Positions 10,924-50,447 of a stretch of DNA of 64,000 bases are shown in pieces. Source of the stretch: Rickettsia typhi (GTDB lineage: Bacteria > Pseudomonadota > Alphaproteobacteria > Rickettsiales > UBA1997); assembly GCA_945901265.1 (NCBI GenBank), contig CAMDJZ010000005.1, forward strand, positions 856-64,855, in the 5' to 3' direction. A model generated the notes under the pieces. It searched no databases, was not told the DNA's origin, and saw nothing but the letters and a program-made list of their open reading frames with translations. A program made the translations under genes and the position numbers. Each line of letters opens with the position of its first letter. The first letter of the stretch is position 1.

Positions 10924-12180
10924 TTATTTCCTTATTGCGCATATTGCTTGTACTTGATATTTAAATGTTGTTAGCTGTTCTAATCCAACTGGACCTCGTG
11001 CATGAAGCTTGCCAGTTGCAATTCCAACTTCCGCTCCCATACCAAACTCATAACCATCGGCAAATTGAGTGGAAGCATTATGCATAACAATTGCCGAATT
11101 AACTTCTTTTAAAAATTTTTGAGCAATTTTATTATCTTCGGTAATAATAGATTCAGTATGTGAAGAGCCATATTTAGAAATATGAAAAATTGCATCATCA
11201 CAATTTTTGACAATTTTAACTGCTAAAATTTTATCTAAAAATTCCGTATAAAAATCATCTTCACTGGCAAGAAATATTCTTTTGTCTGTTAAGCAAGATG
11301 AGTCATCTCCACGAACTTCACAACCTGCTTGCGATAAATCATCGACAATTAATGGTAAAATTTGTGAAGCAATTGCTGAATCAATAAGAAGAGTCTCGGT
11401 TGCTCCGCAAATACTAACGCGACGCATTTTGGCGTTAAATAAAATTTTTCGTGCCTTATCCAAATCAGCATTTGTGTGAATATAAGTATGGCAATTCCCA
11501 TCAAGATGGTTAAGGGTCGCTATATTGCAATTTTCAACAATTGATTTGATAAGATTTTTTCCGCCTCGTGGAATTACTACATCAATGAATTTATTCATTT
11601 TAAGTAATTGATTAAGCGTATCATAGTTCGAATCTTCAACGAAGATAATAATATTTTGATTTAAACCATTTTTTGAAAGGGCTTCGCGAAATAGATCAGC
11701 AATAAATTTTGAACTGTTATAACAATCACTACTTGATCGAAGAATAACTGCATTACCTGACTTTAATGCTAATGCCGAAATATCGCATGTAACATTGGGA
11801 CGAGCCTCATAAATTGCCAATAAAACACCTATTGGAATTGATATACGCTTAATATGTAAACCGTTTTCCAATTGAGTTTCAAATAGAATTTTATCAACAG
11901 GGTCGGGAAGTTTGATTATTTCAGCAAGAGTTACAATCAATGAATTTATTTTATTTTGATCTAATTTTAATCGATCAATTTTAGAAGAGTCTAATTGTTT
12001 TTTTAATGCAAAACTTAGATCTAACTCATTAGCTTGTAGTAATTGCTGAGAATTTTTAGTTATTAAATTTATGACATCTCTTAAAATATTATTCTTAATT
12101 TCCAAACTGGCACTAGCTATTTCTTTACTTGCTTGTTGAGCAGACTGACATATTTGTAAAATATAATTTTTTGAGTTCAT
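10924..12180 (-). CDS. proA: Glutamate-5-semialdehyde dehydrogenase (gamma-glutamyl phosphate reductase)
   Basis: 418 aa. Motifs IYEARPNVT, VIPRGG, HTESIIT and ASTQFADGYEFG. Confidence 0.92.
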   Translation of the reverse strand: MNSKNYILQICQSAQQASKEIASASLEIKNNILRDVINLITKNSQQLLQANELDLSFALKKQLDSSKIDRLKLDQNKINSLIVTLAEIIKLPDPVDKILFETQLENGLHIKRISIPIGVLLAIYEARPNVTCDISALALKSGNAVILRSSSDCYNSSKFIADLFREALSKNGLNQNIIIFVEDSNYDTLNQLLKMNKFIDVVIPRGGKNLIKSIVENCNIATLNHLDGNCHTYIHTNADLDKARKILFNAKMRRVSICGATETLLIDSAIASQILPLIVDDLSQAGCEVRGDDSSCLTDKRIFLASEDDFYTEFLDKILAVKIVKNCDDAIFHISKYGSSHTESIITEDNKIAQKFLKEVNSAIVMHNASTQFADGYEFGMGAEVGIATGKLHARGPVGLEQLTTFKYQVQAICAIRK

Positions 12181-15813: not shown

Positions 15814-17246
15814 TGATTTTAACTCAACCAAAAGCAAACGTGTCACAAAATACATTAGATAACGATTCAAATAACAATCTCACTGACTTTTTTGCATTTT
15901 GTCAAAATCATTTTGGTATAGAAATATACAAAAAATGGTTTACAAATATAGAAATATTTAGCCATAGCAATAGTGAAATTATTATTAAATGTCCTTCAAA
16001 ATTTGAAAGGGATTGGTTAAATCGTGAATTTTTTCAAAGTAAAGTTTTTAAAAATTCATTACATAAAAAACTTCCACAATTACTAAAAGTATCAGCAATT
16101 TTCGTCGCCAAAGAGGAAGATTCTGAAAGCTCTTCAAGAATTGATAAATCCAGCAAAAGCCCTAGCAAAATTTTAAATTTATCAAAATATCAAAATATTT
16201 TTGCATTCGGAACGGAGCTAAATTCTAAATATATTTTTGAAAATTTTGTTAGCACTAAATACAATAAAATGGCTTTGTCAATGGCTAAAATTGTCGCTGG
16301 AATTGGCGATAAAAAAGATTTATTTAAAGAAAAAATTCCTTTTTTTATCCATGGCTCAGTTGGAATGGGTAAAACCCATTTGGCACAAGCAATTGCTTGG
16401 CAAATTCAAAATTCAGATAGTTCGAAAAAAGTCGTTTATCTTTCTGCAGAAAAATTTATGTATCACTTCGTTCAATCAATTCGTAGCAATGATGTAATGA
16501 GCTTTAAAGAAAAAATGCGCTCGATTGATGTTTTGATTGTTGATGATGTGCAATTTATTGCTGGCAAAGAAAGCACTCAGCAAGAATTCATGAACTGCTT
16601 TAATTCTCTTGTTGAAGATAATAAGCAAGTTGTTTTAGTTTGCGATCGTTGCCCTTTAGATTTAGAAAAAATTGATGAAAAACTAAAATCAAGAATTTCT
16701 GGGGGCATGATTGTTAATTTTAAAAACACCGATTTCTCTGATCGCTTGGAAATTGTTAAATCCAAAGCATCGCAACTTGATGTTGAATTATGTTCTAAAG
16801 TCTTAAACTTTGTTGCTGAGAATATTAAAACTTCAATTCGTGATCTTGATGGTGCATTGAAAAAACTGGTTGCATCGCAAGTTTTCGGCGAAGAAGAAAT
16901 CACTCTTGAAACTGCAAAAAATATTTTATCTAGCTACATAAAAAACAGTAAACAAGAAATTGTAACTATTGAAAAAATTCAAAAAATTGTTGCTGAATTT
17001 TATAATATAAAAATTTCCGAATTAAACTCTGCATCGCGTGTTCGCAATATTGCTAGACCTCGTCAAATCGCTATGTATCTTTCTAAAAAATACACTCAAG
17101 AAAGTTTAACTTCTATAGGCGAAAAATTTGGTAAAAAAAATCACGCAACAGTTATTCACTCAGAAAAGCAGGTAATTGCAATGCTTGATAATAATAAAAT
17201 TCTTGAGGAAATAAAAACAATAGAAGAGAAAATATCATCTAAATAG
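15801..17246 (+). CDS. dnaA: Chromosomal replication initiator protein DnaA
   Basis: Walker A GSVGMGKTHL, Walker B VLIVDDVQF, and a C-terminal DNA-binding region (RPRQIAMYLSKK...GKKNHATVIHS). Confidence 0.95.
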   Translation: METIMILTQPKANVSQNTLDNDSNNNLTDFFAFCQNHFGIEIYKKWFTNIEIFSHSNSEIIIKCPSKFERDWLNREFFQSKVFKNSLHKKLPQLLKVSAIFVAKEEDSESSSRIDKSSKSPSKILNLSKYQNIFAFGTELNSKYIFENFVSTKYNKMALSMAKIVAGIGDKKDLFKEKIPFFIHGSVGMGKTHLAQAIAWQIQNSDSSKKVVYLSAEKFMYHFVQSIRSNDVMSFKEKMRSIDVLIVDDVQFIAGKESTQQEFMNCFNSLVEDNKQVVLVCDRCPLDLEKIDEKLKSRISGGMIVNFKNTDFSDRLEIVKSKASQLDVELCSKVLNFVAENIKTSIRDLDGALKKLVASQVFGEEEITLETAKNILSSYIKNSKQEIVTIEKIQKIVAEFYNIKISELNSASRVRNIARPRQIAMYLSKKYTQESLTSIGEKFGKKNHATVIHSEKQVIAMLDNNKILEEIKTIEEKISSK

Positions 17247-47108: not shown

Positions 47109-50100
47109 ATGAACAAAAAAAATAATTATCCACAGCCCAATCAAAACTTTAACTTTTCTAAGATGGAAGAGGAAATTTTGCAATTTTGGAATGATCAAAA
47201 AATATTTGAAAAATCTGTCGAAATACGCAACTTTTCCAATATATTAGATGAAGATAATACCTCGCCAATCATTGATAGTTGCGCCTTAAAAGACCATACG
47301 AATTGTCGCAATCACCAAAATAATCAAAGAAATGAATTTGTGTTTTATGATGGCCCTCCATTTGCTAACGGACTTCCGCATTACGGTCATCTTCTTACGG
47401 GTTTTATAAAAGATTTAGTTGCTCGCTATCAAACTATGAAAGGTAAAAAAGTTGAACGTCGTTTCGGCTGGGATACTCATGGCTTACCAGTAGAAATGGA
47501 GACTGAAAAAGAATTAACTAAGCTCGAAGGAAAATCAATATCTGGACAAATTGCCATTCAAGAATATGGGATAAAAAAATTCAATGATGCTTGTCAAAAA
47601 TCAGTAATGAAATACGCAGGTGATTGGGAAAATTATGTCACTCGTCAAGGGCGTTTCGTGGATTTTAAAAATAGTTACAAGACCATGGATCTAAACTATA
47701 TGGAATCGGTTTTATGGGCATTTAAAGAACTTCACAATAAAGGTTTGCTTTATGAAGATTTTCGTGTCGTACCATATTCCTGGGCGTGTCAAACTCCGCT
47801 TTCAAATTTTGAAACGCAAATGGATAATTCGTATAGAAAGAAAGCGAGCAAAGCGGTAACTGTTTTTTTTACTTTAAAAGAAATACCAATCCATATCACT
47901 GCAGTTAAGCATACCATTGAGGAGTTAAAATTAGCTGGGCATGAAGTTAAATTTTTTAAGTTGTTAGCATGGACAACCACCCCATGGACATTACCCTCAA
48001 ATCTCGCCTTGGCAGTAAATCAAGATATTTCCGGATATCAGATGTATTTTGATTTAGAAACTGAGTCTTTAGTTATAATGGTTTGTTCAAACACTATTAA
48101 TCAATCTGGTTACACAAGTTTTAGATTAGATGTTCTTTATCCCAAAAGATTCATTAGTTCAATTCCCCTTTCCTCCAAGGATTTAGATGTTGTAATTCCG
48201 GATCTCAAGTCAGATCAACTATTCTCTTCCCATTCCTCCAAGGAAATTGAAGAACTAGGATCTTCTCATGCAATGAATTGTATTTCAGGAAAAGAGTTGT
48301 TAGGTTTAAAATATACTCCACTTTTTCCTTATCTCGCCAATCACGAAAAAATAAAAAATAATCCTAAAGCATTCACTATTCTTCAAGGCGATTTTGTTAC
48401 AGCGGATCAAGGAACTGGAATTGTTCACATCGCCCCAGGATTTGGCGAAGACGATCAATTACTATGTAAAGCCAATGGTATTCCAACTCTTTGTCCGGTA
48501 GATGCAGGTGGAAAATTTACAAACGAAATTTTTGATATTAAATTTAATCAATCTATAAACCCCTCTTTCTTTGAACAAGAGGACTCTAAAACCCCCTCTT
48601 TCTTTCAGGGAGAGAACTCTAAAACCTCCTCTCCCTTCCAGGGAGAGAACTCTAAAACCTCCTCTCCCTTCCAGGGAGAGGGTTGGGGTGAGGGTAAAAA
48701 TCTTACTCACTTAGCCAAAAATCTTCGTAAAAACGACACTGATTTAGAAAATAAACTTTGGCAAGCAATAAGAAATCGTCAAATTACTAATCAAAAATTC
48801 CGTCGTCAACATCAAATCGATAATTACATTGTTGATTTTGTATGTTTAGAAAAAAATTTAATTATCGAATTAGATGGATCGCAACATGGATCTACTGAGA
48901 ATATTGAGCATGATAAATCAAGAACAAAAAATTTAGAAAAACAGGGATATAAAGTTTTAAGATTTTGGAATAACGAAATATTTGAAAATTTTAATGGAGT
49001 GCTAGACAAAATATGGTTAAGTTTGCAAAATGACCCTCACCCTACCCTATCCCTGGAAGGGAGAGGGAATGATCGAGATCAATTGAACGAAGGGAATGAT
49101 CGATATCAATTCATAGGAGATATTGATAATTATAACTCTTCAAAAAATGACAAAAAAGACCAAAATGAATTTGAAATTTTATCATTAAAAAATCGCCAAG
49201 TGTTCGACACTAATGACGACATAATTCGCTATCTCAAAACCAATAATAATTGGCTAAAAACTGATCAATATCTCCATAATTATCCACATTGCTGGAGAAC
49301 AGACACTCCGCTAATCTACAAAGCCGTTAGTTCATGGTATGTTAAGGTTACAGCTTTCAAAGATCGTATGGTTGAATTAAATCAACAAATAAATTGGATT
49401 CCAAACCACATTAAGGATGGACAATTCGGTAAATGGCTTGAAGGTGCAAGAGATTGGTCAATCACCCGCAACCGCTTCTGGGGTTGTCCCGTACCAGTTT
49501 GGAAAAGCAAGTCAGGCAAAATAAAAGTCTTTGGCTCGATTGCTGAACTTGAAAAAATTTCTGGCCAAAAAATTAACAATTTACATCGTCCTTTTATTGA
49601 TGAAATTGTTTTTACTGAAGATGGCGAAGAATTTCGTCGGGTTAGCGATGTCCTTGATTGTTGGTTTGAAAGCGGATCAATGCCTTATGCGCAAGTTCAT
49701 TATCCTTTCGAAAATAAAGAATGGTTTGAAGAAAATTTTCCGGCCGATTTTATTACCGAATATGTTGCGCAAACGCGAGGATGGTTTTATACTTTAATGG
49801 TTTTATCGACCGCATTATTTGATCGCGCACCTTTTAAAAATGTCATTTGTCATGGAACAATTTTAGATGAAAAATCTCAAAAACTTTCTAAGCGCCTGCA
49901 AAATTATCCCGATCCTTTGCAAATTTTTCAATCAGTTGGCAGTGACGCGATGCGTTTTTACATGATCTCACAACCAGTTATGCGTGGACAAGAATTAAAA
50001 ATCGATAGGGAAGGAAAGGCTATACAAGATAGTTTTCGTATTTCAATCAAGCCATTAATTAACGCTTACAATTTCTTTTGTCTTTACGCCAATGCTGATA

Positions 50101-50447
50101 AAATTTGTGCCAAAAGAATTGAATTAAAAAATGAATTTAAAAATATTTTAGATCGCTATATTTTGGCAAAATTAAAAAGTTCTATAAATGCTATAGATAA
50201 GGCGATGCAGAATTATGATACTGTTTTAGCTTGTGAAGAATTTAATAATTTTTTCGAAGTTTTAAATAATTGGTACATTAGAAGAAATCGTCAAAGATTT
50301 TGGAAAAGCGAAATTGATCAAGACAAGCAAGATGCTTATAATGTACTTTACACTGTTTTGACCTTGATGTGCGAAACATCTGCTCCACTCTTGCCTTTTA
50401 CTACCGAATTTATTTGGAGAAATTTGACGTTAGCAGTAGATAATTAA
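47109..50447 (+). CDS. ileS: Isoleucine--tRNA ligase, type 2 (eukaryote-like), with an in-frame foreign insertion and no C-terminal domain
   Basis: FYDGPPFANGLPHYGH (HIGH), WTTTPWTLPSN, GTGIVHIAPGFGEDD (editing), YPHCWRTDTPLIY, WFESGSMPY and KLSKR (KMSKS). About 216 codons at 48537-49184 are foreign (see the mobile_element entry). The ORF stops 10 aa after the PFTTEFIW helix. Confidence 0.9.
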   Translation: MNKKNNYPQPNQNFNFSKMEEEILQFWNDQKIFEKSVEIRNFSNILDEDNTSPIIDSCALKDHTNCRNHQNNQRNEFVFYDGPPFANGLPHYGHLLTGFIKDLVARYQTMKGKKVERRFGWDTHGLPVEMETEKELTKLEGKSISGQIAIQEYGIKKFNDACQKSVMKYAGDWENYVTRQGRFVDFKNSYKTMDLNYMESVLWAFKELHNKGLLYEDFRVVPYSWACQTPLSNFETQMDNSYRKKASKAVTVFFTLKEIPIHITAVKHTIEELKLAGHEVKFFKLLAWTTTPWTLPSNLALAVNQDISGYQMYFDLETESLVIMVCSNTINQSGYTSFRLDVLYPKRFISSIPLSSKDLDVVIPDLKSDQLFSSHSSKEIEELGSSHAMNCISGKELLGLKYTPLFPYLANHEKIKNNPKAFTILQGDFVTADQGTGIVHIAPGFGEDDQLLCKANGIPTLCPVDAGGKFTNEIFDIKFNQSINPSFFEQEDSKTPSFFQGENSKTSSPFQGENSKTSSPFQGEGWGEGKNLTHLAKNLRKNDTDLENKLWQAIRNRQITNQKFRRQHQIDNYIVDFVCLEKNLIIELDGSQHGSTENIEHDKSRTKNLEKQGYKVLRFWNNEIFENFNGVLDKIWLSLQNDPHPTLSLEGRGNDRDQLNEGNDRYQFIGDIDNYNSSKNDKKDQNEFEILSLKNRQVFDTNDDIIRYLKTNNNWLKTDQYLHNYPHCWRTDTPLIYKAVSSWYVKVTAFKDRMVELNQQINWIPNHIKDGQFGKWLEGARDWSITRNRFWGCPVPVWKSKSGKIKVFGSIAELEKISGQKINNLHRPFIDEIVFTEDGEEFRRVSDVLDCWFESGSMPYAQVHYPFENKEWFEENFPADFITEYVAQTRGWFYTLMVLSTALFDRAPFKNVICHGTILDEKSQKLSKRLQNYPDPLQIFQSVGSDAMRFYMISQPVMRGQELKIDREGKAIQDSFRISIKPLINAYNFFCLYANADKICAKRIELKNEFKNILDRYILAKLKSSINAIDKAMQNYDTVLACEEFNNFFEVLNNWYIRRNRQRFWKSEIDQDKQDAYNVLYTVLTLMCETSAPLLPFTTEFIWRNLTLAVDN
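48560..48695 (+). repeat. Four tandem ~33-bp units, each carrying a short palindrome (CTCTCCCT-TCC-AGGGAGAG), inside ileS
   Basis: Units at about 48560-48591, 48592-48624, 48625-48657 and 48658-48695. They translate in frame as PSFFEQEDSKT / PSFFQGENSKTS / SPFQGENSKTS / SPFQGEGWGEG. The patch is locally GC-rich in an AT-rich gene. Confidence 0.9.
48661..49066 (+). mobile_element. Inverted-repeat-bounded DUF559 (Vsr-like PD-(D/E)xK) endonuclease cassette fused in frame within ileS
   Basis: Left IR is 48661-48695 (CCTCTCCCTTCCAGGGAGAGGGTTGGGGTGAGGGT). Right IR is 49033-49066 (ACCCTCACCCTACCCTATCCCTGGAAGGGAGAGG), about 31/35 reverse-complement identity. Between them lies LRKNDTDLENKLWQAIRNRQITNQKFRRQHQIDNYIVDFVCLEKNLIIELDGSQHGS...DKSRTKNLEKQGYKVLRFWNNEIF, which matches the DUF559 pattern. 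Confidence 0.75.
49065..49118 (+). repeat. Imperfect 27-bp tandem duplication abutting the right inverted repeat (GGGAATGATCGAGATCAATT... / GGGAATGATCGATATCAATT...)
   Basis: Read directly. The first 20 nt differ at one position. Translated in frame as NDRDQLNEG / NDRYQFIGD. Confidence 0.8.

Follow-up and report, generated by a model that had tools for sequence, protein, structure and literature searches.

A tandem array of hairpin-forming repeats that is translated inside an essential gene raises a question: where did the array come from, and does it do anything for the gene, or for the element, beside which it lies? The gene in question is ileS, which encodes isoleucyl-tRNA synthetase (IleRS), in a 64,000-nt stretch of contig CAMDJZ010000005.1 (GenBank assembly GCA_945901265.1, filed under Rickettsia typhi; hereafter “the window”). 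Four 33-bp units stand there at the left edge of an in-frame insert, a cassette that encodes a DUF559 domain with a Vsr-like PD-(D/E)XK fold between two inverted repeats. We consider it likely that the array is a coding minisatellite: the cassette lies in a surface loop of IleRS, and the array would have grown from the outer part of its left inverted repeat, which forms the hairpin.

The array occupies positions 48552-48683 on the + strand. Tandem Repeats Finder called it at 48552-48680 (period 33, 3.9 copies, 88% matches, score 153), and a second repeat search placed the copies in the identical register. A preliminary description of this DNA had proposed four units of about 33 bp, the last of them merging into the left inverted repeat, and both searches bear this out. 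Each unit is made of one non-palindromic 13-nt spacer and a hairpin, at a fixed spacing of 33 nt. The 19-nt palindrome CTCTCCCT-TCC-AGGGAGAG, with the 3-nt loop that had been described for two units, is exact at 48629-48647 and 48662-48680; degenerate copies lie at 48596-48614 (3 mismatches) and, on the reverse strand, at 49047-49065 (1 mismatch), and a search of shuffled sequence returned 0 matches. The array is read in frame 1 of the 1112-residue ileS open reading frame (ORF; 47109-50447). As had been anticipated from a unit length that is a multiple of 3, it is translated in frame as 11-residue repeats (SINPSFFEQED/SKTPSFFQGEN/SKTSSPFQGEN/SKTSSPFQGEG). The opposite strand is indeed also open at 48462-48710 (82 residues, GTG start); as a gene, this antisense ORF was rejected, since it is a by-product expected of a translated palindrome.

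Identity and G+C content (GC) both drop unit by unit outward from the cassette. With unit 3 (48651-48683; GC 0.55, 9-bp stem, -9.3 kcal/mol) as the 33/33 reference, unit 2 (48618-48650) retains 30/33 identities (GC 0.52, -7.4 kcal/mol), unit 1 (48585-48617) retains 26/33 (GC 0.45, -1.5 kcal/mol), and unit 0 (48552-48584; TCTATAAACCCCTCTTTCTTTGAACAAGAGGAC), the outermost and most decayed, retains 21/33 (GC 0.39, -3.4 kcal/mol). All four are on the + strand, and the energies are those of DNA hairpins, the only structures that the folding tools model. The spacer and hairpin of unit 3 run on into a complete triplex motif. Unit 2 has an intact 8-bp palindrome and ends in ...GGGAGAG followed by AAC, without the third triplex block. 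The left arm of unit 1 has decayed by C>T changes (CTCTTTCT vs. AGGGAGAG), and the stem that survives in unit 0, whose sequence is the same in sister strains, is 6 bp long (CCTCTT/AAGAGG).

These differences also bear on the order in which the units arose. Units 2 and 3 are identical over 30 nt, and the newest duplication is an exact 33-nt copy flanked by the 9-nt repeat CAGGGAGAG; units 0 and 1, for their part, have three derived C>T changes in common. This pattern argues that single units were duplicated at differing times and array positions, and the array’s history thus appears to be one of pairs of single-unit duplications rather than of strictly one-by-one addition. The preliminary description had envisaged a terminus duplicated serially and then decaying toward the AT-rich composition of the host. 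The gradient that it had reported, the host’s GC of 30.8%, and the polymorphism and the outward-decaying arrays of the right side and of other lineages described below all support that history, apart from the strictly stepwise growth.

What, then, are the units copies of? Unit 3 runs into the left terminal inverted repeat (48660-48695, + strand), a TMECO-type motif in three blocks: one of pyrimidines, one of purines that pairs with the first, and a further G-rich one that could lie along the hairpin as third strand. Block 1, TCCTCTCCC (48660-48668), is separated by the loop TTCCA from block 2, GGGAGAGGG (48674-48682), and this by the loop TTG from block 3, GGGTGAGGG (48686-48694). The motif fits the TMECO consensus, CCCTCNCCC N3-6 GGGNGAGGG N3 GGGNGAGGG, with one mismatch, at its first base, the criterion being at most one mismatched position (PMC4666352); it agrees with TMECO no. 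12 of E. coli K-12 at 34/36 positions (PMC4666352, Table 1). Block 3 mirrors block 2, as the sequence logic of a purine-motif triplex requires. The extension of unit 3, GGTTGGGGTGAGGGT (48681-48695), pairs with 49033-49047, and the whole inverted repeat of about 35 nt (48661-48695 vs. 49033-49067) brackets the DUF559 domain. Its right half, found by repeat and palindrome searches at 49034-49067 (+ strand coordinates), is a TMECO-type motif of the opposite strand, CCCTCACCC-TA-CCCTATCCC-TGGAA-GGGAGAGGG. The second loop there is 2 nt, and one stem mismatch, the A at 49049, is present in CCCTATCCC; the sister haplotype L176 and all other lineages have the perfect stem CCCTCTCCC instead. Units 0-2 do not conform to the TMECO consensus: they hold block 1, the loop, most of block 2 (GGGAGAG) and the 13-nt spacer, and block 3 is in none of them. 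Blocks 2 and 3 (GGGAGAGGGTTGGGGTGAGGG, 48674-48694) also fit a four-run G-quadruplex pattern on the sense strand, hence in the mRNA; published nuclear magnetic resonance (NMR) work favoured a triplex for TMECO DNA (PMC4666352).

Intrastrand-triplex repeats known as TMECO, BoxC and PIT occur in E. coli and elsewhere among bacteria (Hoyne et al. 2000, cited in Holder et al. 2015, PMC4666352). Holder et al. 2015 (PMC4666352) reported triplex formation in vitro (circular dichroism, NMR and dimethyl sulfate footprinting), a polymerase stop at a TMECO in dimethyl sulfate probing, and raised sequence variability around TMECOs among E. coli strains, for which slippage was proposed; the authors state that TMECOs are “always located intergenically” and have no link to mobile elements. 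The motif in the window shares with this family the three-block sequence, the inverted pair and the unusual variability of adjoining DNA between close strains, both flanking arrays differing in number among alleles that are 98.96-100% identical. It differs in context. The two copies lie inside the ileS frame, one at each end of a cassette whose DUF559 domain they bracket, and they are translated in an essential gene of a 31% GC, alphaproteobacterium-like genome; the outer two blocks, moreover, have been amplified into a tandem array. The preliminary description was right to treat the repeat as the end of a DUF559 element at this locus; the motif itself is not specific to that element, being pan-bacterial.

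The inverted-repeat ends are about 64% GC, vs. 26.8% for the DUF559 domain and 30.8% for the genome. Over 7 distinct alleles, the three 9-nt left blocks are invariant except for the window’s first base, and the loops vary (TTCCA, TTACA, TTGAT, TTGAG and TTTCA for the first; TTG, TGA, TGG and CTG for the second). The right motif, over the alleles compared, likewise has conserved blocks and variable loops. This invariance holds although the synonymous divergence (dS) of the cassette between lineages is 0.7-1.9. Our interpretation is that selection acts on the blocks as DNA (or RNA) rather than on the peptide, and that it is probably confined to the full three-block motif.

How stable, then, is the array beside this conserved motif? 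The 90%-identity protein cluster of this IleRS has eleven members from independent assemblies, the window’s included. DNA was compared for six alleles (the window and five others, at least 98.96% identical), and the remaining members were compared as protein; all copy numbers derive from short-read metagenome assemblies or metagenome-assembled genomes (MAGs), with contigs assembled at a k-mer length of 141 (k = 141). These close alleles came via the protein clusters, as a metagenome scan with the exact 30-nt unit gave 0 matches. Ten public alleles of this ileS carry 2-6 left units. The window allele has four on the left and two in a 27-bp array at the right edge. L184, with 0 mismatches to it over 3339 nt, has five and two; L185 and L182, each with 2 mismatches, have five and two and six and two, respectively. 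L176 (99.03% identical) has three left and four right units, L183 (98.96% identical) has two and four, and P0125 and P0128, represented by protein only, have three and three. P0122, a partial protein, starts within a right array of at least 5 units. Counts for the right array among near-identical alleles are 2, 3, 4 and, in this protein, at least 5.

In the window-type haplotype, the sole variable is the number of the identical unit that adjoins the full motif: unit 2 is present in 1, 2 or 3 copies in alleles that are 0-2 point changes from the window. Because nothing but this number varies there, the array appears to change faster than single bases do across 3.3 kb of ileS. With a period of 33 (3 x 11), 3.9 copies in the window and 2-6 units within one 90% protein cluster, it qualifies as a coding minisatellite, or variable-number tandem repeat, a class defined by head-to-tail units of at least 10 bp whose number differs between strains and whose length preserves the frame. 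The comparison of strains that the preliminary description had recommended thus brings out this polymorphism.

Related uncultured bacteria have IleRS genes with a cassette at the same site, and several of these also carry arrays. L177 and L178 are 96.8% identical, and the sole gap between them, 99 nt, equals three units (5 vs. 2) of a 33-nt repeat with a related spacer; in both, the entire right motif is duplicated (54 nt x 2). L179 carries 36-nt units, three to the left of the cassette and six to its right; among the six, the inner three are perfect and the outer three progressively decayed. In G004, a genome of the same genus, the left side has two 33-nt units whose spacer is unrelated, the right side has 2.3 x 33 nt, and the near-identical relative P0006 has fewer right units. 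Beyond ileS, free-standing DUF559 genes of the genus have 39-nt hairpin units that decay outward within the N-terminal coding region, and in a valS-like host gene (G018) the left cassette end is duplicated (84 nt). The periods of the in-ORF arrays (18, 21, 27, 33, 36, 39, 54 or 84) are all multiples of 3. L180, L181 and P0013-P0018 have a single motif per side and no array, so the cassette does not need one.

The motif is not restricted to these bacteria. The exact hairpin with its third block was found in at least 120 stretches of the species-representative genomes scanned, and the matches listed come from Proteobacteria, Planctomycetota, Chloroflexota, Nitrospirota, Patescibacteria and other phyla. 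A DUF559 gene adjoins it in 3 of the 80 stretches fetched out of these; across bacteria, the motif is mostly solo. Solo copies carry the third block, unlike units 0-2. Tandem repeats with a period of at least 15 lie within 40 nt of the exact motif at 6 of the 80 loci of other phyla, compared with 1.8 at random positions (P ~0.005), and their periods (95, 107, 66, 27, 43 and 204) are not tied to 3. In E. coli K-12, the DUF559 gene ycjD (L175; NC_000913.3 1351039-1351760) ends inside a degenerate hairpin (…CACCCTCTCCCTGAAAGAGCGAGGGGG); beyond it come a partial second copy of the gene’s 3' end and, about 170 nt downstream on the same strand, TMECO no. 9. This neighbourhood of ycjD and TMECO no. 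9 is not remarked on in the published TMECO study (PMC4666352).

How would a minisatellite grow from such a motif? In the mechanism that we infer, replication or repair synthesis would stall at the hairpin or triplex; the nascent strand would then re-align on the 9-nt repeat CAGGGAGAG, 33 nt off; and whole units, each a 13-nt spacer and a hairpin, would be gained or lost. That a hairpin or triplex forms in vivo and causes slippage is suggested by the published behaviour of the motif and by the position of the arrays, exactly at the motif’s outer edge on both sides. The complete three-block motif beside the nuclease domain would be retained by selection at the level of DNA. The extra units, having no third block, would be unconstrained; they would drift toward the host’s 31% GC and be turned over. 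Because ileS is essential, only changes of 3n bases persist. In the protein, the repeat units probably form a flexible linker rich in Pro, Ser, Gly and Glu, with no role of its own. An on/off contingency switch was rejected, as all changes are of 3n bases.

Several observations weigh against this account or parts of it. The same products would be expected from unequal recombination or from nuclease-induced repair, so slippage may not be their source. The changes that units 0 and 1 share mean that growth was not strictly cassette-proximal. In other phyla, tandem repeats are no more than modestly enriched near the motif (6 vs. 1.8 of 80). The full left motif has decayed in one lineage, L183, and constraint on the blocks is therefore not absolute. 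The identical stretch of the 6-unit allele is 162 nt, longer than k = 141, and its units may have been undercounted or miscounted. An AlphaFold2 model of the whole protein from an 18-sequence alignment has a mean predicted local distance difference test score (pLDDT) of 42, with 60-77 for the DUF559 part and about 25 for the repeats, which are modelled as coil; most of the protein being low too, the model is too poor to call the repeats a disordered linker. Finally, in the other haplotype unit 1 is replaced by a different unit with a perfect 9-bp palindrome, TCTAAAACCTCCTCTTTCTTCCAAGAGGAGGAC (-8.2 kcal/mol), and a palindrome regained in the sister’s middle unit hints at some process, or selection, that keeps hairpins in the “extra” units.

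This last point leads to the possibility that the extra units are functional, as binding or cleavage sites for the DUF559 nuclease or as homology for its propagation, and that the array is maintained for this reason. We regard this as improbable. The new palindrome of the sister’s middle unit would fit it, as would the 6-bp stem of unit 0, which has been retained via a change on both arms, and the recurrence of arrays at cassette ends in several lineages. Nonetheless, one-step template switching within a quasi-palindrome would yield the sister palindrome as well as selection for hairpins would, and such switching restores palindromes without selection. The third block, which belongs to the conserved part of the motif, is missing from the very units supposed to be functional; distal units decay; the number of units ranges from 2 to 6 among near-identical alleles; and the many same-site cassette alleles named above (L180, L181 and P0013-P0018) are single-unit.

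The array could instead act as RNA, a stable mRNA structure pacing translation from CP1 to the nuclease domain, or as protein, a linker whose length tunes the distance of the extra domain from the editing site; either role seems to us quite unlikely. Folding of the array RNA, a check proposed in the preliminary description, did give a stable structure (171 nt, -63.1 kcal/mol, z = -3.75), yet this z-score is a consequence of the palindromes themselves. The C>T changes of unit 1 become G-U pairs on the sense strand, but C>T is also the drift expected at 31% GC. The effects on mRNA folding or translation that the preliminary description had suggested are speculative, as is its idea of a site where the nuclease binds or nicks. 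For a linker, it may be said that all units are in frame and that the region is modelled as coil; the length of the array is not conserved, however, and the structure model is too poor for interpretation.

There is very little chance, in our view, that the array or its copy number is an artefact of assembly. The data all come from short-read metagenome or MAG assemblies, the assembly of G004 breaks at the G-rich block, and the identical stretch of the 6-unit allele exceeds k. Against these concerns, units 0, 1 and 2/3 differ in sequence, so they could not have arisen by collapse or expansion of one unit; the two identical units of the window span 63 nt, which is below read length, and the identical stretches of the 4-unit and 5-unit states (96 and 129 nt) should be resolvable at k = 141. 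Moreover, haplotypes with distinguishable units still vary in number (2, 3 or 4), the frame of the essential gene is intact in every assembly, the 33-nt period is common to three diverged lineages, and independent assemblies have the same array in 2-6 units. The artefact that the preliminary description had named as a possible refutation is, on this evidence, most improbable.

That each unit is instead a separate insertion of a solo, hairpin-bearing element like a miniature inverted-repeat transposable element (MITE) beside the previous one is scarcely credible, even with a motif family that is mostly solo across bacteria (77 of the 80 loci fetched are without DUF559) and relatives that have solo hairpin peptides in the same IleRS loop, because the non-palindromic 13-nt spacer has been copied with the hairpin in every unit, in the same register and at exact 33-nt spacing, as tandem duplication would have it; in addition, the units are without the third block that solo copies have, no other motif copy exists in this genome as a source, and alleles are seen that are missing one unit and exactly one spacer with no footprint.

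The coding minisatellite proposed here resembles those of other bacteria in its head-to-tail units, its unit length in multiples of 3, its number differences among near-identical strains and its degenerate outermost units. It differs from them in that a selfish cassette provides its seed and its anchor, in the form of a conserved inverted repeat able to form structure, and in having a housekeeping enzyme rather than a surface protein as its host. Rickettsia palindromic elements are 100-150 bp long, multi-copy and without a protein domain of their own. Reportedly described by Ogata et al. in 2000, they are palindromic selfish DNA of a small AT-rich genome, inserted in frame so that housekeeping proteins contain their translation. 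The window element resembles them (review PMC10969869) as palindromic selfish DNA translated in frame in a housekeeping protein; it differs in being single-copy, in having a nuclease-fold domain and tandem arrays, and in its unrelated, GC-rich, triplex-type ends. Its identity with such an element was rejected: the motif is at this locus only, and the element is 639 nt long and encodes DUF559. A terminal-inverted-repeat transposon or MITE would have a target-site duplication and several copies per genome besides its inverted repeats. Inverted repeats of about 35 nt are present here, but the genome has one copy of the element, and its edges, where the arrays and AT-rich sequence obscure the boundary, show no clear direct repeat.

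Inteins and intron-borne homing endonucleases provide another comparison, as they too place a nuclease-fold module in a conserved housekeeping gene without destroying it. Intein hallmarks are an N-terminal Cys, Ser or Thr, a C-terminal His-Asn followed by Cys, Ser or Thr, and a Hint domain. The insert in ileS runs from KFNQS... to ...NEFEI, where LSLK follows; it has no His-Asn junction, a Pfam scan found no Hint or intein domain, and an intein was accordingly rejected. Pfam and Rfam scans detected no splicing motifs and no intron RNA family, unlike in those systems; in the Rfam scan of 48300-49400 (E <= 1), there were only sub-threshold chance matches (Antizyme FSE at 25 bits vs. a cut-off of 40, and two microRNA models) and no intron or known RNA. 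The nuclease module appears to stay in the IleRS protein.

The host gene and cassette themselves are readily identified. The ORF at 47109-50447 is an isoleucyl-tRNA synthetase of 1112 residues (Pfam tRNA-synt_1, E = 5e-129). By alignment with insert-free relatives, the whole in-frame insert spans 48540-49178 (+ strand; 639 nt, 213 residues) and stands in for a roughly 3-residue loop close to where the CP1 editing domain ends, about 30 residues past the HxAPGFGEDD motif; in a PDB alignment, residues 477/697 of the query correspond to 366/370 of human cytoplasmic IleRS. The DUF559 domain (48696-49031, + strand; IleRS residues 530-641; GC 26.8%) matches Pfam PF04480 over residues 531-639 (E = 2.7e-38; 130.6 bits vs. 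a gathering cut-off of 20.6). The right-edge array, found by repeat search, comprises two 27-bp units, GNDRDQLNE/GNDRYQFIG, at 49064-49117 (+ strand), and begins within the last bases of the right hairpin.

Within its own 1.42-Mb genome (30.8% GC), the ileS DUF559 is the only one. The genome-wide search for the motif, which the preliminary description had advised, likewise found the 19-nt motif at this locus only. The refuting condition named there, a motif common at many unrelated sites, therefore holds across bacteria but not within this genome. The genome does hold a second TMECO-like site (CTCCCCACGTCAGTGGGGAGAGGGTTAGGGTGAGGG), on contig C40 near 11582-11787 and on contig C28 near 16050-16200, in AT-rich non-coding DNA. 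There it is repeated about 190 nt apart with no DUF559 nearby, and as it lies at two contig ends it probably breaks the assembly.

Between the window genome (G000) and G004, the ratio of nonsynonymous to synonymous divergence (dN/dS) is 0.13 for DUF559 (dS 0.71) and 0.083 for the ileS core (dS 0.94). Because the two dS values are of this order, the cassette is apparently old and has co-diverged with its host, its domain seemingly under purifying selection, and we see no sign of recent homing. The insert is present in 2 of the 19 species genomes of the genus searched (G000 and G004), its site being readable in 17. A first IleRS tree did not establish whether G000 and G004 are sisters. In the IleRS trees (loci L007-L021, proteins P0002-P0021), the cassette-bearing lineages are basal, with insert-free species nested among them, and the larger tree needs at least 3 gains or losses of the cassette (6 by parsimony).

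DUF559 domains with hairpin ends occur in frame elsewhere as well: at L037, L038 and L039 (valS-like), L048 (dnaE-like) and L049 (ybeY-like), and in proteins P0012-P0121. The hosts include a second class I tRNA synthetase, the Pol III alpha subunit, YbeY, Mfd, RecJ, PriA and RecG, and also type I restriction R subunits and DNA methylases. Some cassette ends belong to another sequence family (CTCCCCCC/GGGGGGAG), whose second loop contains a small hairpin, and keep the three-block layout. The literature retrieved for “DUF559” gave no description of in-frame cassettes or of their ends.

The IleRS loop and its surroundings hold other inserts. In the same loop, G026 and G028 (L032, L033) have another domain of about 170 residues, and G025 and G019 (L029, L031) have hairpin-type peptides that are short, GC-rich and free of DUF559. 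An insert about 70 residues downstream of the loop has acetyltransferase-family Pfam matches in four metagenomic, cassette-bearing IleRS proteins (P0017 and P0019-P0021). A second insertion in the window’s ileS, of about 50-60 residues (…TINQSGYTSFRLDVLYPKRFISSIPLSSKDLDVVIPDLKSDQLFSSHSS…; 48036-48240, residues ~310-378), is absent from all other aligned species of the genus. The CP1 editing region (window 47830-48400, IleRS residues ~240-430) is itself a mosaic when compared with P0007, G008 and G010. P0007, which has the cassette, and G008, which does not, have 100% identity across some 230 residues at the N-terminus and some 380 at the C-terminus, vs. 26-74%, with gaps, over residues ~240-430; this looks like a recombinational swap of the whole segment rather than fast divergence. 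Assemblies often break at cassettes: ileS of G004 is split exactly at the G-rich block (ends of contigs C104 and C97), and many DUF559 copies of relatives have a contig end no more than a few hundred bases away.

What do these observations mean for the lineage and for the repeat family? New here are the hypervariable arrays, amplified from the two outer blocks, the data from a population of alleles, and the clear conservation of blocks vs. loops within a coding region. The motif is preserved almost base for base in a 31% GC genome, as both ends of a translated nuclease cassette in an essential enzyme. The arrays are usable as a strain-typing marker for this uncultured lineage, with the warning that the locus breaks or mis-resolves short-read assemblies. 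To our knowledge, no function and no partner protein have been assigned to TMECO/BoxC repeats in the 25 years since they became known. A speculative reading, which we put forward as doubtful and yet worth stating, is that DUF559 cassettes of a widespread class have the three-block triplex motif as their working end, and that the Vsr-like nuclease bracketed by this motif recognises it as folded DNA; solo TMECO/BoxC repeats would then be its non-autonomous relics, and the arrays the scar of repeated structure formation or nicking. If the nuclease does recognise the folded motif, the arrays would be a natural, countable read-out of its activity inside an essential gene.

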